A DNA stretch of 64,000 bases from Candidatus Woesearchaeota archaeon (GTDB lineage Archaea; Nanobdellota; Nanobdellia; Pacearchaeales; GW2011-AR1). The notes beneath the pieces were generated by a model, which did not search any database, was not told where the DNA came from, and saw only the letters and a list, made by a program, of their open reading frames with translations. The stretch lies in assembly GCA_964344105.1 (NCBI GenBank), contig CAYFMD010000002.1, positions 2,905-66,904 of the forward strand, in the 5' to 3' direction. Shown in pieces: positions 42,198-58,041 of the stretch (position 1 is its first letter; each line of letters starts with the position of its first letter). Both the position numbers and the translations under genes were made by a program.

Positions 42198-42620
42198 TTA
42201 CTGCAAACCAAAACCTTTACTCAAAATTATACTAAAAACTATTGAACTTCCAATATACCACCACAACCAACTCCCAGATAAACTTGTAAGTGCATAAATA
42301 CTCCTCATCCAAGCAAAAACCAACAAGATAGGGATCATTGTAACCAACATCGGCTTGAAGCTCATCTTCATTTGCTCTGGCATATCTTCCAACATCTGCT
42401 GATTGATCTGCATCATCTTATCAGGATTATTCTTATGCTCTTTCATCTCAGCCCTAAGAGCTTTCTGCTTCTCTCTAAGTGCCTTCATCTTCTCCTTATC
42501 CGTCATATAATATCTAACTACTGTAATAAACAAGGTCACTAAGAAACTAATTGCAATTATAGACCCTTTCGGATTACTTATCACCCATGCTTGTATATCA
42601 ACCATTTTTATATTTATCAA
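42198..42620 (-). CDS. DUF106-family membrane protein (archaeal Oxa1/YidC-like insertase)
   Basis: TM, then a K/E-rich coiled coil, then TMs. Sits immediately next to secY, as is common in archaea. Confidence 0.55.
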   Translation of the reverse strand: MINIKMVDIQAWVISNPKGSIIAISFLVTLFITVVRYYMTDKEKMKALREKQKALRAEMKEHKNNPDKMMQINQQMLEDMPEQMKMSFKPMLVTMIPILLVFAWMRSIYALTSLSGSWLWWYIGSSIVFSIILSKGFGLQ

Positions 42621-42635
42621 TAAGACTATTTAAAC

Positions 42636-44000
42636 CTAAACACCCATCATTTTCTTCATCGCAGGGTTCATATCCATTGCATGTTGCTGAGCGATATTCT
42701 GATAGAACTGGAATGTAATCATTATTCCTAACAACAAGGCTGTTCCAGCTACAATAGCTCCAAGAACATCGGCAAGAGCAGCTAACAATCCAATTGCCAA
42801 ACCGCCCATTACTGTCAATGGCATAACATATCTACTTAAGATAGATTCTAAAATTCTATGGTCTTTTCTAAATCCTGGAATCTGTAATCCTGATTTCAAA
42901 ATATTATTTGCTTGAGCACCAGCATCCATTCCACTAGTCTTTACCCAAAACACTGAGAACAATGCACAAAAGAACATATAGAATACAATGTGTCCAAATG
43001 TCTGCAACAATAATGCATTCTCCCAACTTCCAGTGATTATTCTCTCAACAATATTTGTACTACCAATCCAATACAAGAATCCTGAAACTGGCTGACCATT
43101 AACTACATTACCTAGGAAAGTAGGTCTTCCTAACCAATTCTGTAATAATCCTCCAAATAGAGTAAAGTTAGCGATCAATGCACTTGTTAATATAACTGGG
43201 ATAACCGAAGCATAAAGGAACTGCAATGGCCACTTCATACTATATCCTCTCAATCTATCATAACTCAATGGAATCTCTATCTTCAAATTCTGTATCCATA
43301 CAACAATCAAGAATAGTATTATTGTAGCAACTATTGCTGCACCAGCCAACATAGCTCCTTGACTATCGGCATTCATTAAACTAACTACAAATGCAATAAC
43401 TCTTCCAGAAGCCTGGAATTGTCCCTGAGTTCCTAAGAATCCAAAGCTAGCTGTTATCAACTGCCATCCAACTCCTGCTGCGATAAACAAACTAACTCCT
43501 GAACCGAATCCCCATTTCTGGCAAACCTCATCCATAAACAAGATAGCCAATCCACCTAACATTAACTGAAAGATAACTATTCCTGTAAATCCTGGAGCCG
43601 CCTGAATACCCCCCATCATAACATAAATTATAGATTCAAATATTATGAAGAAGAATACCATTAACTTCTGTAATCCTTGAAAAAATTTCTTACCTTCTGC
43701 AGTACTAGTGTCAATATTCAATATCTGACTTCCAACTAATAGCTGCAAGATAATACTTGCCATAACGATAGGACCAATACCTAACGATATAATCGAACCA
43801 AAGTTAGTTCCTAAAATAACTGCTAAGAATTCGAACTGCTCTAAGAATCCTGGATCTGCTCCATAAAGTGCAATGTTGGACATTACAAAAAACGCAACTA
43901 GAATCATTAGAGTCCACTTTAACTTAACATTAAAACTCAACTTCTTTTCAGTAGGCGGAGTTACTTCAGGTAAATTATGCAGTATATCTCTAAGTGCCAT
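42636..44000 (-). CDS. secY: preprotein translocase subunit SecY
   Basis: 454 aa, 10 TM helices, position after uL15, N-terminal MALRDILHNLPEV. Confidence 0.9.
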   Translation of the reverse strand: MALRDILHNLPEVTPPTEKKLSFNVKLKWTLMILVAFFVMSNIALYGADPGFLEQFEFLAVILGTNFGSIISLGIGPIVMASIILQLLVGSQILNIDTSTAEGKKFFQGLQKLMVFFFIIFESIIYVMMGGIQAAPGFTGIVIFQLMLGGLAILFMDEVCQKWGFGSGVSLFIAAGVGWQLITASFGFLGTQGQFQASGRVIAFVVSLMNADSQGAMLAGAAIVATIILFLIVVWIQNLKIEIPLSYDRLRGYSMKWPLQFLYASVIPVILTSALIANFTLFGGLLQNWLGRPTFLGNVVNGQPVSGFLYWIGSTNIVERIITGSWENALLLQTFGHIVFYMFFCALFSVFWVKTSGMDAGAQANNILKSGLQIPGFRKDHRILESILSRYVMPLTVMGGLAIGLLAALADVLGAIVAGTALLLGIMITFQFYQNIAQQHAMDMNPAMKKMMGV

Positions 44001-44025
44001 GTTTTCTTTTATGATCTAATGATAA

Positions 44026-44502
44026 TTACTCACTATCTTCAGCAGCATCATCTTTAACATCACTAGAATCTTCAATCTCTCTTTCAACTTTCAGCTCACC
44101 ACCAGCTTTCTTAATCTTATCTTCAGCTGTCTTGCTAGCTTCTAAGGCTTTAATCTTAACTTTCTTACTAATCTCTCCCTTACCTAAAATCTTATGGTCT
44201 GAAAGATCAATCCATCCATCAACTAACTTGAACTTTCCAGTATTTCTCTCAATATCTCCTACATTAATCTTCTTTCTTCTATCCTTCTCATTCCCTCTAC
44301 TTGTAATACCTTTCTTACCAAAATATTCATTTCCGTAAAGCTTGTTAATCAAAGTCTTCTTATGATCAGCTTTCTTTCCAGTTCCAGCCATTCCGATTCC
44401 ACCCTTATGGCCACTCTTCTTCCATTTCTTTCTAGCACCGTGGCCATGATTAGTCTTTCCTCTCTGACCTACTGCCTTCTTTGTTTTCTTAGTCTTTATC
44501 AT
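44026..44502 (-). CDS. rpl15: 50S ribosomal protein uL15
   Basis: GQRGKTNHGHGARKKWKKSGHKGGIGMAGTGKK. Confidence 0.85.
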   Translation of the reverse strand: MIKTKKTKKAVGQRGKTNHGHGARKKWKKSGHKGGIGMAGTGKKADHKKTLINKLYGNEYFGKKGITSRGNEKDRRKKINVGDIERNTGKFKLVDGWIDLSDHKILGKGEISKKVKIKALEASKTAEDKIKKAGGELKVEREIEDSSDVKDDAAEDSE

Positions 44503-44503
44503 T

Positions 44504-44815
44504 TTAATTTATTAGATCAACCTCCGATAAATATCCTTTCCATCTCCCATATGATCCTATATTTGGGCCAATTACACTTTCATCGCCTTCACTAGTAGTT
44601 AGAACATAATGTCCATTTTGATCAGAAACAGTATATGTCCTAAAAAGCAAATCTGGATTTGCATCATCAGATGAATTTGGAACTGGTGATACCGTTTCAA
44701 CAGTGCTTGTCCCATCAACCTCCCAAACTCTCTCAGTAAGATTGACAATGCCTCCCTTCAATCCCTCAAATCTATCTTTTCTAATCCTAAATTCTATCCT
44801 ACTATCTTCCGTCAT
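44504..44815 (-). CDS. hypothetical small acidic protein inserted between uL30 and uL15
   Basis: 103-aa ORF tightly packed in the operon. Not a recognisable r-protein. Confidence 0.3.
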   Translation of the reverse strand: MTEDSRIEFRIRKDRFEGLKGGIVNLTERVWEVDGTSTVETVSPVPNSSDDANPDLLFRTYTVSDQNGHYVLTTSEGDESVIGPNIGSYGRWKGYLSEVDLIN

Positions 44816-45285
44816 CCTAACATCTTTCCTATCAATTTATTAATATCTTTCTTATTGTTTCCTAAAACTCCATCAGGGTATTGCAACTTACTATTGATTC
44901 CGCCTCTTGGTGGATGTAATCTAAAGAATCCCTTAAGCTTAAAGTCCTTCAATTTCTTTCCATCTAACAATCCCTTAGCAACTTCTCCAGCATTAGCTTC
45001 AACTTTTTGCTTTCTACCTTCCTCACTCTCTGCTCTTTCCTTAACAAGCTTCTCTAAAGTTTTACTATCAATATCTCCGTATGCAACATAGTGCTTAACT
45101 CTCTTCAACATTCCAGCAATATTCTTATCATTACTATCAACAATTACACAAGCATATTTTCTTCTTAATCTCAATCTATTCAAAGTCTCAGCTACATCTT
45201 TCCTTACCTTAACCATTCCTGCAATTCTAATTACAGCAACCATCTTTGGTTCTTTCTTTTCTACTTTAGCTTTTTCTTCTGCCAT
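44812..45285 (-). CDS. rpl30: 50S ribosomal protein uL30
   Basis: VAVIRIAGMVKVRKDVAETLNRLRLRRKYACVIV. Confidence 0.8.
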   Translation of the reverse strand: MAEEKAKVEKKEPKMVAVIRIAGMVKVRKDVAETLNRLRLRRKYACVIVDSNDKNIAGMLKRVKHYVAYGDIDSKTLEKLVKERAESEEGRKQKVEANAGEVAKGLLDGKKLKDFKLKGFFRLHPPRGGINSKLQYPDGVLGNNKKDINKLIGKMLG

Positions 45286-45321
45286 TTTCTTCTATTTCAC
45301 TTCTAATTTTTACGTGGCCTG

Positions 45322-45351
45322 CATCATCTTTAGATGATGTACCTTCATCAT
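45322..45351 (-). terminator. overlapping inverted repeats (CATCATC-TTTA-GATGATG and ATGATG-n6-CATCAT) in the SUI1/rpl30 junction
   Basis: Perfect 7-bp stem read directly from the sequence. Sits in the only sizeable gap (62 nt) in the r-protein array. Confidence 0.3.
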
Positions 45352-45647
45352 GCGACATCTATTGTGTCTTGCGAAAACCCAAGTTTTACCAAGGCTTCCT
45401 TGGCTCTTGTCTGGTGATCTCCTTGAAGCTCAACGGTATTTTCTCTTACCGTTCCGCCACATGCCAGGGCATGTTTAAGATCCTTGGCGACCTGTTTAAG
45501 GTCCACGCCTTCGAACCCTGAGATTACAGTTATAATCTTACCGAATTTTTTCTTTTCGGTAGAGATTTGTATTCTCTGTTCTGTTTTCGCGATTTCTTCA
45601 CAAACACATGCTTGCAAAGGCAATCCACATTTCGGACATATATCCAT
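45348..45647 (-). CDS. translation initiation factor SUI1/eIF1 family
   Basis: 99 aa, N-terminal CPKCG...CVC, SUI1 core ITVISGFEG...LKHALACGGTV. Confidence 0.7.
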   Translation of the reverse strand: MDICPKCGLPLQACVCEEIAKTEQRIQISTEKKKFGKIITVISGFEGVDLKQVAKDLKHALACGGTVRENTVELQGDHQTRAKEALVKLGFSQDTIDVA

Positions 45648-45847
45648 TATTTGTTCTCAACAGGTTTATTTAACTTGTTGAATGTTAATAGCTTAGCTAT
45701 TGTTCTCTTAATCTCTCTAATCTTGATCTTACGGCCCTTAGCTACATTTACTCTTTCCTTCATCAATTCCATTCTAAGCTCATTAACTTTTTCTTCTCTT
45801 TCCTTATTACTCATCTTCTGAATATCTGAATTTTTTATTACTGCCAT
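45647..45847 (-). CDS. rpl29: 50S ribosomal protein uL29
   Basis: MAVIKNSDIQKMSNKEREEKVNELRMELMKER. Start at internal Met just after the uS3 stop. Confidence 0.75.
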   Translation of the reverse strand: MAVIKNSDIQKMSNKEREEKVNELRMELMKERVNVAKGRKIKIREIKRTIAKLLTFNKLNKPVENK

Positions 45848-45848
45848 C

Positions 45849-46778
45849 TTATTCCTTATTAGCCTCCTCTGCTTTATCAATCTTATCATCTAATATAGCC
45901 TGATCGTCTTCAGCACTAACGCCCTCTTCAATTTCTTCCTCAATAGCCATAGCATCTCCTTCAACTTCTGGAGTTTCTCTAACTCCCTTAGTAGTTGGTT
46001 CAGTAGCTTCTTCCATTGTTAGCTTGTCTTTTTCTTCTTCAGCTTTAGCAACTTCTCCAGCAGCCACCGCAACCTTTTCCGCCCCCTCATCTATCTTAGC
46101 AGACTTGCTCTTCGTTCCTTTTGTCGATTTTCTCTTCTTCTTAGGTTCCTCCACTTCTTCAACCATTCCAAGCTTGCTCCTCATCTCATCATCTACATCA
46201 ATCTTATCGAAGATCTTTGCAGTTGGTGGCATTATAGCAACCTTTACTCCAATGATTCCAGTCTTAGTTAATCCAGTAGCTTGAGCTCTATCAACTTCCT
46301 TTGATGAATCTCCAGCTTTCTTCAAATATCCTTCAGCGAATCTCCATGACTTAGCTCTCTCGCTTGGCAACTTACCAGTTAATCTCAATTCACATCCTAG
46401 AGCACCAGCTTTCATAATCTCTTGTAGCTTCCTATATGCAATAACCTTAAACTTCAAGTTACCCATTCTTTCAAGAGCCATCGCAATCTCATCAGCAACA
46501 CCTTGTGCATCAAACAATGGATTCTCAATCTCACTAATTTCTATATGAGGGTTTTCTAACTTGAACCTTTTCTTCAAAACTTCAGTCAACTGCTGGATCT
46601 GTTCACCCTTTCTACCAATAACCAAACCTGGCTTACTAGTTGAAATTATAATCTTCTCTCCAACTGGAGTATACTCAATATCCAAGTTACTAATCTTTCC
46701 CTTACCTAACTGTCTCTTGATATATTCTTTAATTCCAAATTCTTCCTTCTTCAACTTAACGAACTTATATGCTTCCAT
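45849..46778 (-). CDS. rps3: 30S ribosomal protein uS3 with about 100-aa K/E/A-rich C-terminal extension
   Basis: KH domain IISTSKPGLVIGRKGEQIQ and the uS3 C-domain, then an acidic/lysine-rich tail. Confidence 0.85.
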   Translation of the reverse strand: MEAYKFVKLKKEEFGIKEYIKRQLGKGKISNLDIEYTPVGEKIIISTSKPGLVIGRKGEQIQQLTEVLKKRFKLENPHIEISEIENPLFDAQGVADEIAMALERMGNLKFKVIAYRKLQEIMKAGALGCELRLTGKLPSERAKSWRFAEGYLKKAGDSSKEVDRAQATGLTKTGIIGVKVAIMPPTAKIFDKIDVDDEMRSKLGMVEEVEEPKKKRKSTKGTKSKSAKIDEGAEKVAVAAGEVAKAEEEKDKLTMEEATEPTTKGVRETPEVEGDAMAIEEEIEEGVSAEDDQAILDDKIDKAEEANKE

Positions 46779-46779
46779 C

Positions 46780-47538
46780 TTACATCTCCGTTGTTTTACT
46801 TAAAGCATCAATACATGCCTTAGCCAAATTTAATGTTGTTCTTTTCTTCCCTGTTGTAACGCTATAAACGTCCTTTATTCCAGCGATCTTCAAAATCTTC
46901 TTCAACTCATCTCCTGCAACTAATCCTGTACCTTGAGCAGCTGGCATTAACTTAACTCTACAACTTCCAGCCTTACCTTCTACAGTAAACGGAACAGTAT
47001 GTGGTTCACCACAAGTACAGTCAAAACTACTACAAGCCTTCTTTATTTTCATTAAGTTCAACTTAGCCTTTCTAACTGCCTTCGCTCTAGCTGGCAATGT
47101 CTCTTGAGCTCTTCCATAACCAAGACCAATATAACCTTCACTTCCAGCAACTGCCATACATGAGAATGTAGCAACATTACCTTCCTTAGTCTTTCTCTGA
47201 GTTTGTCTCCAAGCTCTTCTCTTTCCACCACCAAACTTACCCTTAGCCTGACCAATATTCAAAATATCTTCCTTAGTCTTCAATAGCGTATCAACTATTT
47301 CTGGCTCCAAGATTCTATGTGTAAGCGCCTCATCAATATCCTTAATCTTTCCAGCCTTAACCTGTTTACCTAGAGCAGTTTTTGGCTTCCATTCTTCAAG
47401 CTCTCTAGCTTGCTGTTCTTTCAACCTTTCTTCCCTAGCTTTCTCTATCTCTGCTTTTGACTTGGGCTTAAAATCCCTTCGGTCATTTCCACGACCTCTT
47501 GGCCTTGCATTTTCCATTGGTTTCTTTTCTTCTGCCAT
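46780..47538 (-). CDS. rps5: 30S ribosomal protein uS5
   Basis: EWKPKTALGKQVKAGKIKDIDEAL and the uS5 core. Confidence 0.85.
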   Translation of the reverse strand: MAEEKKPMENARPRGRGNDRRDFKPKSKAEIEKAREERLKEQQARELEEWKPKTALGKQVKAGKIKDIDEALTHRILEPEIVDTLLKTKEDILNIGQAKGKFGGGKRRAWRQTQRKTKEGNVATFSCMAVAGSEGYIGLGYGRAQETLPARAKAVRKAKLNLMKIKKACSSFDCTCGEPHTVPFTVEGKAGSCRVKLMPAAQGTGLVAGDELKKILKIAGIKDVYSVTTGKKRTTLNLAKACIDALSKTTEM

Positions 47539-48008
47539 TATTTCAATCCTCCCTTAACTTTTTCTACAAAATCATATTTATTAATCATTTCATCAGTAGG
47601 TAATACTTCTTCATTATGTGGAATCTCCAATCCACCTTCAGCAACTCCTTTAACTGCAGCATAAACTCTGCTACCCTTTGTATTAGGAATCAATCCAGTA
47701 TCTAATATTACTTTATCCACATTCTTTGCTTTAGCTTTATTAGCTAACAACATTCCTCCAAGATAACAAGCTGCAAGACTCTTAAGACTTCCAGCCTTTT
47801 CCTTTGGCCATCTGTATCTCAAAAACTCCTTTGTACTAACCTCACAAATTACCTTGTCCTGAGCATTAACACTTTCAACTACTTGCAATAGTATATACTT
47901 GTTAGACTTTCTAACTACTAATCTTGGAATATTTCCTTTTAGTAGGTTCAATCTCTTAGTATAGTTTGTCTTATTCTCTCTTCGTCTTCTTCTGTCTAGT
48001 CTTTTCAT
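47538..48008 (-). CDS. rpl18: 50S ribosomal protein uL18
   Basis: RRRRENKTNYTKRLNLLKGNIPRLVVRKSNKYI. Confidence 0.8.
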   Translation of the reverse strand: MKRLDRRRRRENKTNYTKRLNLLKGNIPRLVVRKSNKYILLQVVESVNAQDKVICEVSTKEFLRYRWPKEKAGSLKSLAACYLGGMLLANKAKAKNVDKVILDTGLIPNTKGSRVYAAVKGVAEGGLEIPHNEEVLPTDEMINKYDFVEKVKGGLK

Positions 48009-48562
48009 TATTTCTTACCTCCAGTCTTTTTAGTTGGATTCTTCTTTGTTTCCTTAACTTCCTTCTTAGCAGTCTTCTTCATCTTATTAGCTTCCATTTT
48101 CTTCTTTATCTTCTTTGTCTCTGGCTTTCTATCTTTGCTTACCTTATCAAAATCAACATCATCATGTGCCTTCAAATAATCTCTCATAGCAGCCTTACTT
48201 CTAAAATCTCTCATTCTAATTTTATTTCTTATCTTCCAATATAATTCTCTATCCAAAACTCCTCTATCTCTCAAACTCATAGCATACTCTCTCAACTTTC
48301 TAGTTATCTTAACATACTCTTGCTTTCTCTTGTTAACTTTCATCTTAATCTTTCCAGGCCCCCTTCTATGCTTTCTCTTAACATTTGTCTTTCTACCCTT
48401 AACAGGCTTAATGCTAATTATTCCTTCACCATGGAGTTGCTTAATATCCTGTCTAGTAATAGCTTCCTTGATCTCATTCAAGTTCTCTGACTTAAACTGC
48501 AGTCTACCTTTACCAACGCCAAGTGCCTTAGCTGCTAGTTCTTTCTTCTTTGCTAGATTCAT
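48008..48562 (-). CDS. rpl19e: 50S ribosomal protein eL19
   Basis: MNLAKKKELAAKALGVGKGRLQF...HRRGPG, K-rich tail. Confidence 0.8.
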   Translation of the reverse strand: MNLAKKKELAAKALGVGKGRLQFKSENLNEIKEAITRQDIKQLHGEGIISIKPVKGRKTNVKRKHRRGPGKIKMKVNKRKQEYVKITRKLREYAMSLRDRGVLDRELYWKIRNKIRMRDFRSKAAMRDYLKAHDDVDFDKVSKDRKPETKKIKKKMEANKMKKTAKKEVKETKKNPTKKTGGKK

Positions 48563-49152
48563 TTCTTCTTCTCCTTAACTTTAGATTTACTTGCAACATT
48601 TACATCAGCCTTCTTTTCTTTTGTTTTATCTTCCAATCCTTCCTTCTTCTCTTCCTTAGCCTTCTCCTTTTTCTCGGCTTCCTTCTTTGCCTTCTCTTCA
48701 GCTTCCTTAGCCTTCTTATCTCTAGCTATCTTGTCAGCCTTTCTCTTATCTTTCTTATCCTTAGCTTCCTTCATTTTATTTTCTAGATCTTTCAAAAACT
48801 TAGCTGCATCAAATCTGTACAACTCAATCTTATCCTTAACAACCCTCTCAGCAATAGCTTTCTTATTCTTGTCCCCAACCTTTCCTAGTATTCCAATCAT
48901 ATCCTTCCCAATTTTACTCAAATCAGTAACATTGAAAATCTTTACAACTTCCTTGCCCTTAACCAAATGTCTACCAGCATTTTCATTCTTAAATCCAACC
49001 TTAACTTTTCTAACTCTTCCAGCTCTATTTAATCTAATCTTGTTATCTCTACCATTAGGGAATCTGTACTTAACTTTCTTCTTTCTTCTAACTCCTAACT
49101 TTGAATACTTATGAGCATCTACTTGTCTAAATACTGGTTTTGCCTTTGTCAT
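48559..49152 (-). CDS. rpl32e: 50S ribosomal protein eL32 with about 90-aa K/E-rich C-terminal extension
   Basis: RQVDAHKYSKLGVRRKKKVKYRFPNGRDNKIR core, then KDKKDKRKADKIARDKKAKEAEEK... Confidence 0.8.
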   Translation of the reverse strand: MTKAKPVFRQVDAHKYSKLGVRRKKKVKYRFPNGRDNKIRLNRAGRVRKVKVGFKNENAGRHLVKGKEVVKIFNVTDLSKIGKDMIGILGKVGDKNKKAIAERVVKDKIELYRFDAAKFLKDLENKMKEAKDKKDKRKADKIARDKKAKEAEEKAKKEAEKKEKAKEEKKEGLEDKTKEKKADVNVASKSKVKEKKK

Positions 49153-49865
49153 TCTAAATAAACCCTCCCTGGTTTTTGTATAATGAAAATTCCATCTTGG
49201 TAAATTCTTCTATCCTTCCCTCTAACCTTTGCACCTTTCTCAATATTGGTTGCAACTTGACCAGCCTTCTCAATATCATGGCTAGTAATAACAACGTCCT
49301 CTCCGTTAACCTTAACATCAACTCCAGGAATGGTATCGATAATTCTATCCTTCTTCTCTCCCAAGAAGTTCTTAATCGTAAACTTATTACTATTCCCATC
49401 AAAACTAACATTCATTGGGAAGTGTACATTTGAAACTCTCAACTTATACTCAAAACCTTCAGTTAGCCCTTTAACCATATTCTTAACATGTGCCTTGAAA
49501 GTTCCGAAAAGCTTTCTCTCTATCTTTCTATTTCTCTCAGCACTAATAACAACCTTATTTCCCTGAACTGCAACATCTAACAAACTAACCAACTTCCTCT
49601 TAATCTCTTTATCATTTTTCTTAACTGTCAATACTCCATCTTCAACACTAGCACTAACTCCTTCAGGTAATTCAATTTCCTCGTACAAACTATCTTTATC
49701 ATCCTTTCTACTGTTAGCTGGATTATTCTCTACAACTTCCTCAATTACTTCTTCCACTGTCTCTTCCTCATTAGTTGATTCGGGAACTTCTTCTTGCTTC
49801 TCTTCTACAGTTTCTTCCATTTTCTCTTCAGTATTCTCAGTAGTTTGCTTTTCTTCTTCTGCCAT
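49149..49865 (-). CDS. rpl6: 50S ribosomal protein uL6 with acidic N-terminal extension
   Basis: About 60 acidic residues, then IELPEGVSASVEDGVLTVKK and the uL6 core. Confidence 0.8.
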   Translation of the reverse strand: MAEEEKQTTENTEEKMEETVEEKQEEVPESTNEEETVEEVIEEVVENNPANSRKDDKDSLYEEIELPEGVSASVEDGVLTVKKNDKEIKRKLVSLLDVAVQGNKVVISAERNRKIERKLFGTFKAHVKNMVKGLTEGFEYKLRVSNVHFPMNVSFDGNSNKFTIKNFLGEKKDRIIDTIPGVDVKVNGEDVVITSHDIEKAGQVATNIEKGAKVRGKDRRIYQDGIFIIQKPGRVYLE

Positions 49866-50236
49866 TAGTACATATAAGCCATTAGGCTTCCTCCCAAATT
49901 TTCTTCTTCAGCTTCCATGTGCTTCTTCAATCCCTTATTGGTTGAAACAACAACAAATCCAAAATTCTTAGCTGGAAGATATCTTCTTACGTAGAAATTA
50001 ATCTTATCTCTCTTCACTGTATATCTTGGCTTAATCGACTTAATCATATTCAAATCCTTGATCTCAACCTTCAACTTAGTTCCATCAACTTCATAATCTA
50101 ACAATCCGCCTTCCTTAGCTAAATCCAAAATGTGCCTCAATAACTTAGAGTGCTTAGTTAGAACTACCTTTGTCTTTCTAGCCTTTTTGGCATTCATTAT
50201 TACATTCAATCCGTCTGCTACAATATCTTGACTCAT
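49865..50236 (-). CDS. rps8: 30S ribosomal protein uS8
   Basis: MSQDIVADGLNVIMNAKKARK. Start at internal Met after the uS14 stop; the ORF track runs to 50272. Confidence 0.8.
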   Translation of the reverse strand: MSQDIVADGLNVIMNAKKARKTKVVLTKHSKLLRHILDLAKEGGLLDYEVDGTKLKVEIKDLNMIKSIKPRYTVKRDKINFYVRRYLPAKNFGFVVVSTNKGLKKHMEAEEENLGGSLMAYMY

Positions 50237-50237
50237 C

Positions 50238-50468
50238 TTAACTATACTTCTTGAAACCAAGGTCCTCCGCAATTTCTCTAAAGCAATGTCTACAAATATT
50301 CAATTCATAGCTACTTATCATAGCCCCAAATCTTCCACATCTTTCACATTTCTTCTGCGCGATTCCAGTAGTTCGATCCTTTGGCTTATTATGCTTGATA
50401 AGCTTGTTCCTCATAGCAGGTTTATTTCTAAACTGCTTCAACTGCTTTCTCCAATCACTTGCTGTCAT
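50238..50468 (-). CDS. rps14: 30S ribosomal protein uS14 (zinc-binding type)
   Basis: CERCGRFGAMISSYELNICRHCFRE. Start at internal Met; the ORF track runs to 50492. Confidence 0.75.
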   Translation of the reverse strand: MTASDWRKQLKQFRNKPAMRNKLIKHNKPKDRTTGIAQKKCERCGRFGAMISSYELNICRHCFREIAEDLGFKKYS

Positions 50469-50469
50469 T

Positions 50470-51060
50470 TTACTTTTTACCCTCCAGTACATTTAGATTA
50501 AAATGCTTCTTCATATAATCAACAATCTCATCTTGAGTAACTTCTTGTCTCTTAGGATACTTTCCTGTTTTAATTTTTCTAAGCTTAACACTCTTACCTT
50601 TTCTCTTGAAAACCAACATAACTTCAAATCCGCTGATACCAATATCTCTATCGTACTCAAGACCAGGAATTTCAATATATTCATGAATTCCAAAACAGAA
50701 TTGATTAGTTGTAATCTGTTTCTTTTTAATTGTATTATCTACTGCAACGAAGAATCTCTCCAATAAATCATGAATCTTCTTCTTATCTCTAATTGTGATC
50801 TTAGCTCCTGACTTCTTTCCAGGACTAATTCCGAAAGTTGGGATTCTTCTAGTTGATCTAACAACATAAATATTATTTCTTCCGGTTATCATTTCTAATA
50901 GTTTTATTGACTTCTCCAACTTATCTTCAGTCCCACCAGTATGCAGAACCATTTTTTCTATTTCAATTTCTTGCATTGGGTTTTTCTTCATGTGACCTGA
51001 ATCAGATTTATCTGATTTACCTACTTCCACTTCAGCTTTAGTTTCTTGTACTTGTTCCAT
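50470..51060 (-). CDS. rpl5: 50S ribosomal protein uL5
   Basis: PMQEIEIEKMVLHTGGTEDKLEKSIKLLEMITG. Confidence 0.85.
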   Translation of the reverse strand: MEQVQETKAEVEVGKSDKSDSGHMKKNPMQEIEIEKMVLHTGGTEDKLEKSIKLLEMITGRNNIYVVRSTRRIPTFGISPGKKSGAKITIRDKKKIHDLLERFFVAVDNTIKKKQITTNQFCFGIHEYIEIPGLEYDRDIGISGFEVMLVFKRKGKSVKLRKIKTGKYPKRQEVTQDEIVDYMKKHFNLNVLEGKK

Positions 51061-51061
51061 C

Positions 51062-51700
51062 TTACATAGCTATAACGTTCTTTACCCAAACGTTAACTTT
51101 CTCCTTATCATGATCTATTACTGCAATCTTCTTTCCACCTTGCTCAATAATATTTGCAATCTTACCTTGAACACCTGTGTGCTTTCCATGAATAACATAA
51201 CCTTCGCTACCCTTATCCATCTTAACAACCTTGCTTATCTTACCATCCTTCAAACTAACAATTGCAGTATCTCCAACAGCAGCTTTCTCCTTAGAGATAA
51301 TATTCTTTCCATCCATCAAGTTAAATTGAATACCCCTCTTACCTAGATTCTTCTTGCCAATAATCTTAAGGACCTTCTTATCAGCATCCTTTGCTTCCTC
51401 AAACTTGAACTTCTTATTTGTTCCAAGAAGAACTCTGAAATCCTTTCCACCAGCACTAACTACATCAAACAAGGCTACTGGATAGTTTGTATCTCTAACT
51501 TCCTTCCCACTTACCTTAACTTGCTTTTCATTCAATGCCTTCTTTAATTCCTTAGTTGTTCTTACCATCTTCAAAACATCCCTCATTACAACACTCAATG
51601 GAATTGAATTACTATTATTGTGGCTACTAGCCGCTACATACTTATTTCCCTTCTTGGCTACAGGCCAAAAATTACCCATGTTGTGTCTGTTCTTATGCAT
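51062..51700 (-). CDS. rps4e: 30S ribosomal protein eS4
   Basis: Position between uL24 and uL5. YPVALFDVV segment and KOW-like region. Confidence 0.75.
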   Translation of the reverse strand: MHKNRHNMGNFWPVAKKGNKYVAASSHNNSNSIPLSVVMRDVLKMVRTTKELKKALNEKQVKVSGKEVRDTNYPVALFDVVSAGGKDFRVLLGTNKKFKFEEAKDADKKVLKIIGKKNLGKRGIQFNLMDGKNIISKEKAAVGDTAIVSLKDGKISKVVKMDKGSEGYVIHGKHTGVQGKIANIIEQGGKKIAVIDHDKEKVNVWVKNVIAM

Positions 51701-51702
51701 TT

Positions 51703-52143
51703 TTACTTCTTAGCCTCCTTGTTTTCTTTCTTATCATCTTTCTTCTTCTCAGTCTTCTTCGTTTCCTTTCTCTCCAAAGCAGCCTTTCTCTTCTTATCAC
51801 TTAAGTCTAATTCCTTAATCATCAAATTACTTGGAGCAAACTTAACGCTAGTCTTTGTTCCATCCTTCTTAGTTCTATAAATACCATCAATCTCAACTTT
51901 CATCTTCTTCAAATCCACATTCTCAATCTTTCCAGTCTTACCTTTAAACTCCCCCCTCATTATTGAAACATTATCTCCCTTTCTAACTGGGAAGCTTCTC
52001 TTCTCATGTTTCTTCCTTAGATCCTTACTTAAAGTTACACTTACCATTTTTCTTCTCAAATGCAATGGAGCATTAGCTACATACTTTCTCTGCTTTCTAG
52101 GTTGCTTACTCCCTGTCCATGATGCTGAAAATTTGTTTTTCAT
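51703..52143 (-). CDS. rpl24: 50S ribosomal protein uL24 with K-rich tail
   Basis: VRKGDNVSIMRGEFKGKTGKIENVDLKKMKVEIDGI (KOW). Confidence 0.8.
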   Translation of the reverse strand: MKNKFSASWTGSKQPRKQRKYVANAPLHLRRKMVSVTLSKDLRKKHEKRSFPVRKGDNVSIMRGEFKGKTGKIENVDLKKMKVEIDGIYRTKKDGTKTSVKFAPSNLMIKELDLSDKKRKAALERKETKKTEKKKDDKKENKEAKK

Positions 52144-52544
52144 TATAGTACAAACCTCGCTATTTTATTTACAAACGGCCATCTTTCACCAGCTTCTTTA
52201 GCTATTGGTCCTTTAATCTGAGTTCCCTTTGGATTACCTTTTTCATCCTTCAATAAAGCAACTGCATTATCTTGGAATGCAACTCTCTCACCAGTGAATC
52301 TTCTGAAAGGCTTCTTCTGTCTGATAACAACCGCATCGAAAACTTCTCCCTTCATCTTAGGATCTCCCTTTCTAACCGAAACTTTAACCCAATCTCCAAT
52401 CTTAGCATATTGCTGTCTACCCTTTCTAGTCTTTCCACCCTTAACACTAACAATCTTAACGATTCTTGCTCCACTATTATCACTAGCTGTACATAGCGTT
52501 CCAATATTCATACTCTTAGTCGCCTTAGCTGCAAATCCTTTCAT
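52143..52544 (-). CDS. rpl14: 50S ribosomal protein uL14
   Basis: NIGTLCTASDNSGARIVKIVSV. Confidence 0.85.
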   Translation of the reverse strand: MKGFAAKATKSMNIGTLCTASDNSGARIVKIVSVKGGKTRKGRQQYAKIGDWVKVSVRKGDPKMKGEVFDAVVIRQKKPFRRFTGERVAFQDNAVALLKDEKGNPKGTQIKGPIAKEAGERWPFVNKIARFVL

Positions 52545-52891
52545 TATTTCTTTCCTCCAGCTTTTGTTTCTTTACTTTCCTTATCAGCTTTACCTGTAAC
52601 CACGAAATGTATTATCTTACTGATAGGCCTGCATTCTTTAATTTCAACATAATCTCCAAGGTTGATGTCCTTAGCCATGCAATCTGGAACTCTAGCATGA
52701 AGCTTAGTCTTTCTCTTTGAGTATCTCTCGTACTTCTTTATGTAAATTGTTCTTTCAAACTCAATTACAATTCTCTTCGGGAATTTCTTAATAACAGTTC
52801 CACTAAAAGTTCTTCCTCTAAGACTTATGTCTCCATGAGTTGGACACGCAAAGTCCTTACATTCTACTTTCTCAGTTTTTGCTGCTGTCAT
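52544..52891 (-). CDS. rps17: 30S ribosomal protein uS17
   Basis: CKDFACPTHGDISLRGRTFSGTVIKK. Confidence 0.8.
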   Translation of the reverse strand: MTAAKTEKVECKDFACPTHGDISLRGRTFSGTVIKKFPKRIVIEFERTIYIKKYERYSKRKTKLHARVPDCMAKDINLGDYVEIKECRPISKIIHFVVTGKADKESKETKAGGKK

Positions 52892-52940
52892 CTTGAATTT
52901 CTTTGAAATTTAAGAACCTGAAATTTTTAATTTCAGGATT

Positions 52941-53567
52941 TTATTTCTTGTTCCCTCCCATTGGTACTAATTTAATTTGAACATGTGATCTCTTGTGCTT
53001 TCCTTGACCGAATCTCTTCATTGGCCTTGAAGCAACATTTGCCATGCAAGTTAGCTTTACCTTCTCTAACTCTAACTCATGGTTAATTGCATTAGCTTTT
53101 AAACTTTTCAGTAACATTGAAAACTCCTTAACTGCATTCAAAGGATATCTTCCACTCATCATCTTACCTTTTCTGTGAGGGATCTCTCCTCTCATTGGAA
53201 CAGCCGCTCTCATCTTACTAACTTCCTCAAGATCTGCTATTGCATCTTCGATGTTCTTGTTCTTGATGAAGTTGCAAACAGCAACCGCATGTTTAGTTGA
53301 AATTCTAAGATCCCTTCCATTAACAACTACCTCAGTTCTCTTTGGGCCTGTACTTTTCTTTTCTGATTTCTTTTTAGTATCTTTAACATCTTTATCACTC
53401 GCGGCAGATTTTTCCTCGTTTCCACTTTCCTTATCCTTCGTTTCCTTTTTAGAGCTACCAGTATCTACAACAGGAGCCTTATCCTCAGTATCTTTAACTT
53501 CAGTTACAGGCTTCTCATTCTTTACATCTTCCATCTTCTGATTATCTATCTCCTTCTGCTCTACCAT
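52941..53567 (-). CDS. rpl22: 50S ribosomal protein uL22 with about 80-aa K/E-rich N-terminal extension
   Basis: uL22 core ISTKHAVAVCNFIKNKNIEDAIADLEEV, preceded by low-complexity KDTEDK... Confidence 0.8.
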   Translation of the reverse strand: MVEQKEIDNQKMEDVKNEKPVTEVKDTEDKAPVVDTGSSKKETKDKESGNEEKSAASDKDVKDTKKKSEKKSTGPKRTEVVVNGRDLRISTKHAVAVCNFIKNKNIEDAIADLEEVSKMRAAVPMRGEIPHRKGKMMSGRYPLNAVKEFSMLLKSLKANAINHELELEKVKLTCMANVASRPMKRFGQGKHKRSHVQIKLVPMGGNKK

Positions 53568-53609
53568 ATTTGAACTTCTCCAAAGTTTAAAATTTTAATT
53601 TTCATCATT

Positions 53610-53846
53610 TTATGCCGCTCCCTCATACCTCCTAATAGCCTCATCTATTCCATCTAAGCCAGCATCGGGATTTCTTCCAAAGTATTGAGCAGAATTAACT
53701 AGAAACGCTGTAGCAGCATCCATCAAATCTCCAACAGGTTCATCGTTAATTGGACAAATAGGCCTGCCCAATTCCTCAACAAGAACTCCCAACTCATAAC
53801 TAAAAGTATCAATTACCAATCTTGCTATATTATCATAATTTGTCAT
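53610..53846 (-). CDS. hypothetical small acidic protein inserted between uS19 and uL22
   Basis: 78-aa ORF. Not a recognisable r-protein. Confidence 0.3.
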   Translation of the reverse strand: MTNYDNIARLVIDTFSYELGVLVEELGRPICPINDEPVGDLMDAATAFLVNSAQYFGRNPDAGLDGIDEAIRRYEGAA

Positions 53847-53847
53847 C

Positions 53848-54258
53848 TTACTTCACGCTCCTTGATGCACTTGACCTTGTAGCTCCAACACCAGCTGATC
53901 CGTGCTTTACTTTATTTCTTGTTAGCGAAAATTCTCCAAGTCTATGTCCCAACATATCTCCAGTAACATCGATTGGAACAAACTGCTTTCCGTTGTAAAC
54001 ATTTATCCTCATTCCAACCATTCCAGGAACAATAACCAAATGTCTCAAGTGAGTCTTAATCTGCTTATTCTTATCTAACTTAGTCTTACAAACGGTCAAG
54101 AACTTATGCAACTCGTCATATTGCCTCAAAGCAGTTCTCTTCTCATTAGACTTCAACAACTTAGCAAACTCTCTAATATCAAGAGCCTTTAGCTCATCCA
54201 GAGATTTACCTCTATAACTGAATTCTTTCTTCCCTACTACTTGCTTTTCATCTGCCAT
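53848..54258 (-). CDS. rps19: 30S ribosomal protein uS19
   Basis: HLRHLVIVPGMVGMRINVYNGKQFVPIDVTGDMLGHRLGEFSLTR. Confidence 0.85.
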   Translation of the reverse strand: MADEKQVVGKKEFSYRGKSLDELKALDIREFAKLLKSNEKRTALRQYDELHKFLTVCKTKLDKNKQIKTHLRHLVIVPGMVGMRINVYNGKQFVPIDVTGDMLGHRLGEFSLTRNKVKHGSAGVGATRSSASRSVK

Positions 54259-54986
54259 TATCTTTTCTTCCTTCCTGTTTTCTTTGGTCTAATATGTCCA
54301 ACCTTTCTTCCTGGCGGTGCGTTTCTCTTAGCAATCTTGCTTTTAATTCTTTTTCCTCTTCCACCACCAAATGGATGATCGATAGCGTTAACCTTAACAG
54401 CACTTGTTCTATGCCACTTTCTACCTTGAGCTTTCATTCTATGGTGCTGCTTACCTGCCTTAACAATAGGTTTCATCTTTCTACCGTCTCCAGCAACAAT
54501 TCCAACAACAGCTCTACAATCTTCATTCAACTTTATCCTTCTTCTTCTAATCAATAATTCAACCTTGCCATTTTCATTTGAAGTAACAGTAGCAGAACTT
54601 CCACCAGCTCTCAATAACTTTCCACCCATTCCAGGAACGCTCTCAACATTGAAAACCTTAGTTCCAGTTGCCAAATCCTTCAACATCAAAACATCTCCAA
54701 CTTCAGGATCCTTATTCTCTGCTCTCTTACCAATACTAATTTCCTGACCTTCATAAACTCCCTCAGCAGCAGGTACAATAAATCTAGCCTTTTCTTTATC
54801 AGAAACTTTAACCTCAATCTCAGCCAATGGGCTAGTATGTCCAGCACTATTGAACAACTTAATTATCTTAGCTTGACCTTCAACCTTCAAAGCAGGATAA
54901 CTAATCTTATGTCTATAAGCTCTAGGCCTAACTCTGAAAGTCATACTTCCCTTTCCTCTAGCCTGTTGTGTTATTCTCTTAGCCAT
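54258..54986 (-). CDS. rpl2: 50S ribosomal protein uL2
   Basis: AIDHPFGGGRGKRIKSKIAKRNAPPGRKVGHIRP. Confidence 0.9.
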   Translation of the reverse strand: MAKRITQQARGKGSMTFRVRPRAYRHKISYPALKVEGQAKIIKLFNSAGHTSPLAEIEVKVSDKEKARFIVPAAEGVYEGQEISIGKRAENKDPEVGDVLMLKDLATGTKVFNVESVPGMGGKLLRAGGSSATVTSNENGKVELLIRRRRIKLNEDCRAVVGIVAGDGRKMKPIVKAGKQHHRMKAQGRKWHRTSAVKVNAIDHPFGGGRGKRIKSKIAKRNAPPGRKVGHIRPKKTGRKKR

Positions 54987-54987
54987 T

Positions 54988-55227
54988 TTATATCATTCCT
55001 AATGTTGTAGCAACATCAACTGCAAGATTGCTTGGATTTAGTTTAGCATAAACATATTTCTTATTCCCTCTAATCAAACTATTAACACTATCTACCTTAA
55101 CGTTGAATCCTTCCTCAATATCCTTCTTAACTTTATCCTTCTTCATTCTTCTATCTACTTCAAACACCAATGTGTTATTCATTTCAATCAATCTAACTGC
55201 CTTTTCTGATGTAACTGGTCTCAACAT
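54988..55227 (-). CDS. rpl23: 50S ribosomal protein uL23
   Basis: MLRPVTSEKAVRLIEMNNTLVFEVD. Confidence 0.8.
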   Translation of the reverse strand: MLRPVTSEKAVRLIEMNNTLVFEVDRRMKKDKVKKDIEEGFNVKVDSVNSLIRGNKKYVYAKLNPSNLAVDVATTLGMI

Positions 55228-56144
55228 TATTCTTCCTTCTCCTCAGATTTACTTTTAGCCTTATTTGCCTTTTTCTTAACATCCTTCTTCTTTCTAGCTT
55301 CATTCTTAACTTTTCTAGCATCAACTTTCTTCTCTTCCTTCTTACCCTCAGCCTTATCCTTCTTACTATCAAAAATCTTCTCCAAATCTGCAACAGCCTT
55401 CTCGCTGAATAGAGTCAATCTAGCTCCACCATCCGCTAAATCACTAACTTGCAAATCATTAACCTTCACAACATCAATTCCGTTAACATTCTTATCCTCA
55501 TCATTTCCAACAACAAATAACAAACCAGCATTTTGCTTATACTTTCTTCCTCTCATCTTACCCTTTCCAGCTCTAACACTCTTCTCTTGAATTGCAACTT
55601 CGTACAAATCTCCTAAGATCTTCTTTAAACTATCCAAGAACTCCTTAGTCTTTAATTCAACAACTTTATCTTCAATAACTAATGGGAAATCTCCAGATGC
55701 TTTATCAACTCTAGCATACTTACTCTCAATCTCCTTTGGAGTTGAAACATAAGTCAATGAACTCAATAGAGCCTTCAACATTTCCTTTCTGTTAACCTTA
55801 ACTAATCCAGTTGATCCCTTTGGAGGATGAGCTCTTCTACCGCCTCTAGTGAATGGAACAATTGCACCTTCCCATGAGAACTGAGTTCCCCTTCTCCAGA
55901 AAGCTTTCTTTGGCATTCTAGCCATTCCTCTTCCTCTGTCCGACTTCCAAGCATGTCTTAGATGTCTAACATTTCCTGAAGCAGATCTATCCATACCTGC
56001 TCTATAAGTATTTGAATAAGGCTGCTTTATTCTCTCAGCCTCTACAACCTTACTAATAATATCAATTCTTACTGGCTCTTCGAATAACTTAGTATCCATT
56101 TCCTTAACCTTCTTACCTTCCTTACTCAATACTTGAACTTTCAT
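55227..56144 (-). CDS. rpl4: 50S ribosomal protein uL4 with K-rich C-terminal tail
   Basis: Position and core, then KDKAEGKKEEKKVDARKVKNEARKKKDVKKK tail. Confidence 0.8.
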   Translation of the reverse strand: MKVQVLSKEGKKVKEMDTKLFEEPVRIDIISKVVEAERIKQPYSNTYRAGMDRSASGNVRHLRHAWKSDRGRGMARMPKKAFWRRGTQFSWEGAIVPFTRGGRRAHPPKGSTGLVKVNRKEMLKALLSSLTYVSTPKEIESKYARVDKASGDFPLVIEDKVVELKTKEFLDSLKKILGDLYEVAIQEKSVRAGKGKMRGRKYKQNAGLLFVVGNDEDKNVNGIDVVKVNDLQVSDLADGGARLTLFSEKAVADLEKIFDSKKDKAEGKKEEKKVDARKVKNEARKKKDVKKKANKAKSKSEEKEE

Positions 56145-57109
56145 CTTAACTCAATAAACTCCATATTTTTCTTAGCTTGATTTTTACTTCCTCTAACTGG
56201 CATTGTAAAAAACAATGGTCTCTTTGAAGGACCAGTCACAGAACCATGAACAATAACATAATCATTCTTAATCATTCCATATTTCTTGAAACCCTTATCA
56301 GGATTAATATTATCTTCCTCGATAGAACCAATCTTCAAAACCTTTCCATTATTGATAACTCTACTAAAGTAACCAGTTTGACCTGCCATTGGCTGAGTAT
56401 ATTCAACTCTAGCTGGATGCCATGGTCCTCCCGATCCAGGACCTCTAACTCCTTTCTCCGACTTATGAGATCTCAACTTCAATCCAAATCTTTTTGTTGG
56501 ACCTTGTGTACCCTTACCAATTGTAACTCCTCTAATATCTACCAAACCACTCTTCATAAAATTCTCATCCATAAACTCGCTAACTTTCATCTCCTTAGCA
56601 GCATTTTCCTTAATCCAATTAATCTTCTCTTCCTTGCTTCCGCTTAAAGCAACCTCAATCATATCTGGCTTCTTTTTAACTCCAGTCTTCTTAACTTGAC
56701 TGTATAAAATAACTCGAACATCGTCGTAATCATCTTCTTTAACATCCTCTATTTTCTTTTTAACTTCCTTAGGAAGCTTAACTTTTTTCTTAACTTCCTT
56801 ATCAATATTAGAATTTAGAACTTCACCCACCACCTTACCATTTTTGTAAAATCTTGTAGAAAAAATCTTAACCGTTGGGAACTCAATAATAGTCACCGGA
56901 ACAGTTATTCTTTGACCCTTAGTCAAAGAGCTTGAGCCATTGTCTCTCACAAAAGCACTCATCATCCCCACCTTATAACCAATAAAACCCAAAAGACCAA
57001 CACCATCTCTATTAAGGGTCTTGAAGCTCGCACTAGGAATAACCTTCGCTGCCCTCTTTCGAGGCCAGAACTGCAAACTTCCATGTCTCATATGTCCACG
57101 ATGTCCCAT
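56141..57109 (-). CDS. rpl3: 50S ribosomal protein uL3
   Basis: HRGHMRHGSLQFWPRKRA N-terminus, internal K-rich insert. Confidence 0.85.
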   Translation of the reverse strand: MGHRGHMRHGSLQFWPRKRAAKVIPSASFKTLNRDGVGLLGFIGYKVGMMSAFVRDNGSSSLTKGQRITVPVTIIEFPTVKIFSTRFYKNGKVVGEVLNSNIDKEVKKKVKLPKEVKKKIEDVKEDDYDDVRVILYSQVKKTGVKKKPDMIEVALSGSKEEKINWIKENAAKEMKVSEFMDENFMKSGLVDIRGVTIGKGTQGPTKRFGLKLRSHKSEKGVRGPGSGGPWHPARVEYTQPMAGQTGYFSRVINNGKVLKIGSIEEDNINPDKGFKKYGMIKNDYVIVHGSVTGPSKRPLFFTMPVRGSKNQAKKNMEFIELR

Positions 57110-57221: not shown

Positions 57222-57300
57222 TATCAAAAACCCAAACCTAAGATACGTCTATCTTAGTATAAACTTGAAATTACCTACAAAAAAGGGTATTTAAAGCTTC

Positions 57301-58041
57301 CTAAACAGTAAATTCCTTCTCAACCACCTTCTCCTCACCATCCACAATTAACTTCCTCAAAACCTTACCTTTCCTCTTAGCATCTTCTTTAATCTTAGCA
57401 TAATCCTCTCCAGCCTCCTTCTTAAGCTCATCACTTACAACAATCTCATCAATCATGTATGTATGTCCTACTGTAACTTCCTTAAAATCCTTAACATCAA
57501 ATAATAAGCTATTAACAAGATCCTTATCATCAGTCTTCAACTTACAAAAATCAACTTTAATCTCAGCCTCTCCCTTACTACTTGGTTTAGCGCTTTTAGG
57601 AGACTTCGGCTTAATCTTCAACTCAGTATTCCCAACTTTAAAACTCAAACCAAAGAAACACTTTGGAAATTTATCCAGAAGCTCAACCATCTTGCTTCCA
57701 GTCATTTCTCTCTCTAAAACATATTTCTTAATTCCAAGAGCATTCTTCTTCTCATCATAATCAAACTGACCATCCAAATCAAGAGTAGTCATAATAACTC
57801 CACTAACCTTAACTTCATCATCTCCAATCTTCTCTGCCAAAAATCTAACCAACTCATTACTATATTCTGCAGTTGTCCCAATTCTAAAAATTCCTTTAGC
57901 CTGGGCCTTACAAGTCACCATCGCCTTATTCTTGAACTCTCCTCGACTAAACTTTACAAACTGCAAGTGAGCAAGATCATCTACCTCATCATCAAATATC
58001 TTGTTAATAAAAAACTTCATAACATAAGATCTTAATTTCAA
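57301..58041 (-). CDS. hypothetical protein upstream of the r-protein operon
   Basis: 246-aa ORF with no recognised motif. Confidence 0.4.
   Translation of the reverse strand: MKLRSYVMKFFINKIFDDEVDDLAHLQFVKFSRGEFKNKAMVTCKAQAKGIFRIGTTAEYSNELVRFLAEKIGDDEVKVSGVIMTTLDLDGQFDYDEKKNALGIKKYVLEREMTGSKMVELLDKFPKCFFGLSFKVGNTELKIKPKSPKSAKPSSKGEAEIKVDFCKLKTDDKDLVNSLLFDVKDFKEVTVGHTYMIDEIVVSDELKKEAGEDYAKIKEDAKRKGKVLRKLIVDGEEKVVEKEFTV

Follow-up and report, generated by a model that had tools for sequence, protein, structure and literature searches.

Exchange of two adjacent gene blocks in the ribosomal-protein superoperon of Pacearchaeota, with a probable single gain and one reversal

Can the gene order of the ribosomal-protein superoperon change within a single archaeal lineage, and if so, how often and by what route? 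The question is raised by a stretch of 64,000 nucleotides (nt) from an archaeon deposited as Candidatus Woesearchaeota (GTDB order Pacearchaeales; assembly GCA_964344105.1, contig CAYFMD010000002.1, positions 2,905 to 66,904), the whole of which is termed the window here. The S10-spc gene cluster has a 14-gene core, uL22-uS3-uL29-uS17-uL14-uL24-uL5-uS14-uS8-uL6-uL18-uS5-uL30-uL15, to which archaea add RNP1/Rpp29, S4e, L32e, and L19e; the core order is reported to be shared by Asgard archaea, other archaea, and Bacteria, apart from a single exception among the Thaumarchaeota (PMC10833476). The window departs from the canonical uL22-uS3-uL29-(SUI1/RNP1)-uS17 order and from the uS5-uL30 adjacency. 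A gap of 49 nt separates L22 from S17, and S3-L29-SUI1 are found 5.4 kb downstream, where S3 comes next after S5 and L30 next after SUI1. This arrangement is a genuine and vertically inherited swap in the superoperon of Pacearchaeota (DPANN). Two blocks have exchanged places: block B, which comprises S3-L29-SUI1 and its 3′ spacer (~1.5 kb), and block C, which comprises the 15 genes from S17 to S5 (~5.4 kb), so that L22-B-C-L30 has become L22-C-B-L30.

The superoperon occupies the minus strand of the window from L3 to SecY (42636-57109) as 26 co-directional genes. Pfam searches of every open reading frame (ORF) give the order L3-L4-L23-L2-S19-orf78-L22-S17-L14-L24-S4e-L5-S14-S8-L6-L32e-L19e-L18-S5-S3-L29-SUI1-L30-orf103-L15-SecY, exactly as a preliminary description made from the sequence had claimed. 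L22 (uL22, 208 aa; 52941-53567; PF00237, 1.3e-09), the canonical upstream neighbor of S3, is followed by a 49-nt spacer (52892-52940), which is the vacated site where S3-L29-SUI1 stand in canonical genomes. Beyond it lies S17 (uS17; 52544-52891; PF00366, 6.7e-18), the canonical downstream neighbor of the three genes. At the new location, the upstream neighbor of S3 is S5 (uS5, 252 aa; 46780-47538; S5_C PF03719, 1.9e-20; S5_N PF00333, 5.3e-12), and one nucleotide (46779) separates the S5 stop from the S3 ATG. The relocated block begins with S3 (uS3, 309 aa; 45849-46778; S3_C PF00189, 2.7e-16; KH_2 PF07650, 5.5e-13), continues with L29 (uL29, 66 aa; 45647-45847; PF00831, 4.9e-09), whose ATG lies 1 nt past the S3 stop, and ends with SUI1 (aIF1, 99 aa; 45348-45647; PF01253, 1.8e-19), which overlaps L29 by 1 nt. 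The longest L29 ORF reaches 45889 and would overlap S3 by 41 nt; gene callers picked the 66-aa start. A 62-nt spacer (45286-45347), which moves with S3-L29-SUI1, then leads to L30 (uL30, 157 aa; 44812-45285; PF00327, 2.3e-13), now the downstream neighbor of the block. The universal core ribosomal-protein genes are all present, single-copy, contiguous, and co-directional, and S4e, L32e, and L19e (PF00900, PF01655, and PF01280/PF25476) occupy their usual places in L24-S4e-L5 and L6-L32e-L19e-L18. Chance can be set aside, since each identity is a strong profile match to a single-copy gene, and the profile hidden Markov models uphold the earlier reading of both S3 and S5.

The cluster also looks native and co-transcribed, as had been proposed. 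Including the EMC3/YidC-like gene that follows SecY in the same run, all 27 genes share one strand within ~15 kb. Intergenic distances range from -4 to +62 nt, and almost all fall between -4 and +2 nt; the only larger gaps are orf78|L22 (42 nt), L22|S17 (49 nt), SUI1|L30 (62 nt), L15|SecY (25 nt), and SecY|EMC3 (30 nt). No intergenic spacer of the cluster contains a coding-strand T-run of five or more. The S5/S3 gap and the abutting or overlapping S3/L29 and L29/SUI1 joins are likewise as first described. The reported lack of an Rpp29-like gene also stands: no cluster ORF of the window matches Rpp29/RNP1 in Pfam (the remaining window was not scanned), and none occurs in the cluster of any of the 80 related loci introduced below, canonical ones included (the rest of those genomes was not checked).

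The order is not peculiar to one genome. From 443 S3-bearing loci, 80 Pacearchaeota loci (L001-L080) were kept, one genome per GTDB species, and annotated by tblastn with the window proteins. The rearranged order S5-S3-L29-SUI1-L30, with L22 adjoining S17, is found in 41 of them, and the canonical order L22-S3-L29-SUI1-S17...S5-L30 in the other 39. L29 is present in all 80, its detection being merely weak in some. A second copy or remnant of S3, L29, or SUI1 is absent from these loci at E<=1. More than 4,000 homologues of the S3 protein were retrieved, and those that carry a name are Pacearchaeota or Nanoarchaeota S3, which assigns the window (~36% GC) to the Pacearchaeota group of DPANN archaea. 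The exact S3 protein of the window occurs in contigs of four separately assembled sequencing runs in Logan (ERR2281802, ERR2281803, ERR2281805, and SRR22722179), and the order S5-S3-L29-SUI1-L30-orf103-L15, with the same junctions, is identical in all four run-level assemblies. Moreover, when metagenomes were scanned with the S3 protein from a canonical relative as the seed, 69 rearranged contigs, 5 canonical contigs, and 6 that were too short to classify were returned (69 of 74 classifiable). Gene misidentification and misassembly are thus excluded.

The comparison also defines what moved. Breakpoints fall at three places: at L22|S3, where the spacer downstream of SUI1 ends, and at S5|L30. 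In both arrangements this spacer follows SUI1, standing before S17 in the canonical order and before L30 in the rearranged one, and SUI1 directly precedes one of these two genes in all Pacearchaeota loci examined. The spacer is typically 50-90 nt long in the rearranged clade, and the SUI1|S17 gap of canonical relatives is at most 109 nt. Since SUI1 keeps its spacer in both orders, the unit that moved is S3-L29-SUI1 together with the 3′ spacer or, equivalently, S17 through S5 moved ahead of it. In most rearranged genomes, the L22|S17 and S5|S3 joins measure no more than 2 nt (L22|S17 from -4 to +2 nt). The change is a swap of adjacent blocks on the same strand, without inversion, in which all genes keep one strand and operon-like spacing.

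How often the order has changed was read from trees of the cluster proteins. Fifteen proteins from the cluster were concatenated (2,223 columns, 62 taxa) for neighbor-joining (NJ) with 200 bootstraps, and maximum likelihood (ML) comparisons were made on two different 19-taxon samples with a self-written program that used BLOSUM62-derived exchangeabilities, empirical frequencies, and four gamma categories. All rearranged genomes, together with two canonical ones (L021 and L028), are united in one clade by 100% of the NJ bootstraps. The window falls inside this clade, the other canonical genomes fall outside it, and the same membership comes from trees built separately on the upstream, middle, block, and downstream segments. 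The canonical pair L021 and L028 groups with five rearranged genomes in 84.5% of replicates. When short metagenome contigs were included in a 95-taxon tree, the truncated canonical genome L039 took the basal position in 78% of replicates, and 68% of them united the nested canonical genomes (L021, L028, L141, and L145). The most parsimonious history is probably one transposition after the L039 lineage had diverged, followed by one reversal in the subclade of L021, L028, and L141/L145.

The L30 gene carries a second trace of this history. The outgroup genomes have an L30 whose ATG overlaps the stop codon of S5 (ATGA) and whose protein starts with MIxxIRISG. In all loci of the clade, including canonical L021 and L028, L30 does not overlap S5 and bears a K/E-rich N-terminal extension of ~6-40 residues that is absent from the outgroup loci. 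The L30 of the window starts with MAEEKAKVEKKEPKMVAVIRI, which places a ~14-aa K/E-rich extension ahead of the conserved VAVIRI, and has no overlap with its upstream gene. Judged from these sequences, the L30 state of L021 and L028 is as expected if their ancestor carried the inserted block, which would have uncoupled its L30 from S5.

The alternative that survives best, although we judge it unlikely, is a single origin of the rearranged order with no later reversal; the rearranged genomes would then be monophyletic, L021, L028, and L141/L145 would be their sister group, and the nesting would be a tree artifact. Internal branches in the clade are short, the trees use cluster proteins only, L041 and L042 have long branches that could distort the rooting, and a precise reversal seems improbable a priori. 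However, monophyly of the rearranged genomes is recovered in none of the 200 NJ bootstraps and in none of the four segment trees. The ML comparison also rejects it: trees with the nested canonical pair reach log-likelihoods of -47866 and -44962 in the two samples, compared to -47907 to -47909 and -45003 under rearranged monophyly, a deficit of ~41-43 units. Its support by resampling of estimated log-likelihoods (RELL) is 0.0005-0.0025 across the two samples, which included alternative placements of L041 and L042. In addition, even the nearest relatives of L028 by S3 (87% identity) have the rearranged order, and L021 and L028 carry the derived L30 extension.

A still less probable history takes the canonical order as ancestral throughout the clade and the same relocation as having happened independently at least three times, which would make the site a recurrent hotspot. 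The same tree topology permits it, operon junctions are generally prone to insertion, and small tandem duplications do occur at S5|S3. Yet it needs three or four identical events rather than the two of a gain and a reversal, all rearranged genomes have the three breakpoints and the attachment of the spacer in common, and the L30 extension is universal in the clade.

There is very little room for the idea that the block came from another lineage, as part of an operon segment acquired through horizontal transfer or recombination. This candidate was dropped because the upstream, middle, block, and downstream trees are congruent, giving the same clade membership with 100% support; moreover, the GC and third-position GC (GC3) of S3, L29, and SUI1 match those of their neighbors, and the block genes have no second copy. 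Finally, a chimeric or mis-joined contig that placed S3-L29-SUI1 after S5 is scarcely conceivable, for although the window is evidently metagenome-derived and the preliminary description had raised the concern, the order recurs in the four separate runs, in 41 species-level genomes from many projects and assemblers and in 69 metagenome contigs, with 1-nt operon-style joins at its junctions.

By what route might an inherited block swap, once gained and once reversed, have come about? Tandem duplication of B and C, then loss of one copy of each (duplication-random loss), would keep the strand and the operon membership of every gene, and could equally run in reverse. This mechanism is the simplest and likeliest route, but it is proposed tentatively, at somewhat less than even likelihood. 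Neither an intermediate nor a remnant was found in the 80 GTDB loci, so the mechanism is inferred only. The rearrangement may further have been tolerated owing to an unusually relaxed operon contiguity in the lineage. Tandem duplication with random loss is a classic model for gene-order change in animal mitochondria. The swap resembles such changes in that adjacent co-oriented blocks exchanged places without inversion, that it is reversible in principle, and that small duplications occur at the new junction in close relatives; it differs in that the 80 loci show no duplicated intermediate or remnant, and membership in this class is accordingly an assignment by inference.

The junction itself varies among close relatives. 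In the two species closest to the window, an 18-codon mini-ORF (MEAYKIKNFNLPFLWRRR in L001, 9934-10000; MEEMKIEIFKLPFFNGRK in L007, 9859-9999) stands at S5|S3; it begins like S3, and a CUCCC...GGGAG hairpin follows it. Small, recent duplications are seen here: in L007 the mini-ORF is tandemly repeated as a 61-nt unit in 2.3 copies of 100% identity, and in L001 the S3 start is duplicated. The mini-ORF may act as a leader peptide or be the scar of a duplication. It does not occur in the window, where the S5|S3 gap is 1 nt.

The spacer that travels with SUI1 may hold an internal promoter. In the window, the SUI1|L30 spacer contains a hairpin (45322-45339), AGGC (45317-45320), and TAAAAAT (45306-45312), the last of which starts 27 nt ahead of the L30 ATG in an AT-rich genome. 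Spacers downstream of SUI1 in the clade often begin with (A)AGGC-WWW-TAAAAA, and a loose GGC..WAAAA motif is found in 15 of 32 clade spacers after SUI1, compared to 0 of 14 in the outgroup and 3 of 93 other operon spacers. It also resembles the promoter-like GAAGCTTTAAATACC that lies upstream of L3. Read from its letters and spacing, the motif may be a candidate TFB-recognition element (BRE) and TATA box, with a geometry right for a leaderless or short-leader transcript. A promoter that once stood ahead of S17 would then now stand ahead of L30-L15-SecY, with S17 tightly coupled to L22.

Other regulatory features of the spacers were also considered. The SUI1|L30 spacer has a predicted fold of -10.9 kcal/mol (z -2.7), and the L22|S17 spacer forms a hairpin with a 9-bp stem (-10.5 kcal/mol, z -3.8). 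A conserved hairpin after SUI1 was rejected by a z-score survey, in which these spacers had a mean z of -0.5 compared to -1.3 in other spacers. A sigma-70 promoter scan, which is irrelevant to archaea, gave 46 matches against 46.7 expected and thus no enrichment. Terminator-like sites on the coding strand are confined to gene interiors and the region upstream of L3; the site at 52917-52937 belongs to the non-coding strand. The whole window contains no transfer RNA gene by ARAGORN and no Rfam family at gathering thresholds, so no known ribosomal-protein leader accounts for the spacers.

Taken as a whole, an inherited block swap with a probable single gain and one reversal, perhaps produced by duplication and loss, with a candidate spacer promoter, and perhaps tolerated through relaxed contiguity, is in our judgment very probably the best explanation of the locus. 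Several points weigh against it. On the side of mechanism, no duplication intermediate or pseudogene remnant occurs in the 80 GTDB loci. The promoter motif is loose, the genome is AT-rich, and the motif is degenerate in the window itself (AGGCCACGTAAAAAT); hairpins are not enriched in the spacers downstream of SUI1. On the side of history, the trees are built from the cluster's own proteins by NJ and a home-made ML on 19 taxa, the grouping of the nested canonical genomes is supported at only 68-75%, and the L30 extension could predate the swap.

Set beside known systems, the window is like the canonical archaeal S10-spc cluster in that the 14 core genes and S4e, L32e, and L19e occur once each and contiguously, with L3-L4-L23-L2-S19 upstream and SecY downstream; it is unlike it in that uS3-uL29(-SUI1) stand between uS5 and uL30, that RNP1/Rpp29 is absent from the cluster, and that two orphan ORFs (ORFans) are inserted. 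Nanoarchaeum equitans has split or dispersed ribosomal-protein clusters. Clusters of this type are also known from Heimdallarchaeota bins and from the thaumarchaeote N. aquarius (PMC10833476). These too are lineage-specific departures from the universal order, but they scatter segments around the genome, whereas the cluster of the window is intact and has exchanged two adjacent blocks.

The inserted ORFans point to a wider plasticity of the operon. In the window, orf78 (53610-53846) lies between S19 and L22, and orf103 (44504-44815) lies between L30 and L15, where it shares an ATGA overlap with L30 and ends 1 nt ahead of L15. Both are on the minus strand, acidic, and without a Pfam match, and both have native-like GC3 (for orf78, pI 4.1 and GC3 0.25, like its neighbors). 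In word-indexed searches of 5.8e9 proteins, each matched only itself, and an exhaustive HMMER search with orf103 gave only partial matches to long repeat proteins. Neither has a significant match among 268 gap ORFs from relatives by phmmer or iterated profiles. Single-sequence AlphaFold models of orf78 and orf103 were unusable, with predicted local distance difference test (pLDDT) values of 41 and 54. The closest species (L001), whose flanking genes are 76-82% identical, has different ORFs in both slots; nucleotide alignment to it breaks within a few nucleotides of the orf103 borders, and a different 91-aa ORF fills that slot. The region of orf78 and the adjoining L22 extension likewise has no DNA-level alignment with the closest species.

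Across the 80 GTDB loci, 268 of 1,409 cluster-gene junctions have gaps of at least 150 nt. A same-strand ORF fills 245 of these (~17% of junctions), and an opposite-strand ORF alone fills one. The gap ORFs have a median length of 105 aa, number 3.1 per locus on average, and occur in 63 of 80 loci at least once. The 268 gap ORFs fall into 215 BLASTP groups, of which 189 are singletons. Best matches lie at the same junction in 36% of cases compared to 5.8% expected by chance, and several families occur at different junctions. The only Pfam matches among them are a DnaQ-like exonuclease at L4|L23 and a metallo-beta-lactamase-fold protein at L30|L15. The former (DnaQ/RNase T type; PF00929, 2e-14) was seen in 9 loci, including L044, L050, L053, L055, L056, L064, L075, and L079; the latter (PF00753, 2.9e-15) adjoins L15 in L005, L013, and L056, at L30|L15 or L15|SecY. 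Another recurrent occupant of L30|L15 in relatives is a Cys4 zinc-ribbon mini-protein.

An HSP20 gene that some Thor- and Odinarchaeota have acquired within their S10-spc cluster has been treated as unusual (PMC10833476). Like orf78 and orf103, it is a non-ribosomal gene on the same strand within the cluster, but it is one recognizable gene in a few genomes, unlike the 245 mostly unrelated ORFans in 80 Pacearchaeota genomes. One tentative reading, held at a little below even confidence, is that the superoperon, the most conserved gene cluster of cellular life, has turned in Pacearchaeota into a plastic locus in which blocks swap and swap back and about one in six junctions hosts a co-transcribed, hypervariable ORFan, so that it offers fast-turnover minigenes a landing pad with high expression. 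These minigenes might be related to symbiosis or defense, or their frames might stay open solely because translational coupling has to be preserved.

Several further features of the window accompany the cluster. Many of its ribosomal proteins bear long K/E/D-rich low-complexity extensions outside the Pfam domain. These include a hypervariable N-terminal extension of ~80 aa on L22 (52941-53567), an N-terminal extension of ~100 aa on S5 (46780-47538), an acidic C-terminal tail of ~110 aa on S3 (45849-46778), an acidic N-terminal extension of ~60 aa on L6 (49149-49865), and a C-terminal extension of ~85 aa on L32e (48559-49152); L19e (48008-48562) is also among the extended proteins. Directly downstream of SecY on the minus strand lies a gene for an EMC3/TMCO1/YidC-like membrane insertase (42198-42620; PF01956, 1.4e-11), an arrangement that is kept in most of the 80 related loci. 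At the other end, the 190 nt upstream of L3 (57110-57300) contain several hairpins and T-runs and look like a long structured leader, with no Rfam match. The promoter-like GAAGCTTTAAATACC lies at ~57287-57301, 185 nt upstream of L3, and GGAGGTGA lies ~45 nt ahead of the L3 ATG.

What does the rearrangement mean for Pacearchaeota? It is a native, inherited, and unreported variant of the universal ribosomal-protein cluster, which marks a large Pacearchaeota subclade and has probably reverted once. Full-text literature searches found no report of S3-block relocation or of ORFan inserts in Pacearchaeota. The S10-spc order is treated as essentially invariant in Bacteria and Archaea (PMC10833476), and a clean transposition in dozens of species is a rare genomic change. 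The preliminary description had suggested that it could serve as a lineage marker. This holds insofar as it marks a clade with 100% support, but the state has changed more than once, and since a canonical subclade is nested within the rearranged clade the marker is useful yet not free of homoplasy. With this proviso, the rearrangement can serve as an anchor for Pacearchaeota taxonomy, which is poorly resolved, and the S5-S3 junction, which marks the clade, offers a quick check on the binning of metagenome-assembled genomes.

The apparent reversal indicates that even characters of this kind can be homoplastic, and it points to a repeatable mechanism at the operon. Should the promoter in the spacer prove real, the swap would have rewired the genes behind an internal promoter, from S17 onward before to L30-L15-SecY after. 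The ORFans of the operon provide an easily surveyed case of new or fast-evolving genes that ride the strongest housekeeping transcription unit. The plasticity of this operon in the lineage deserves a study of its own and is of higher interest than the rearrangement itself.

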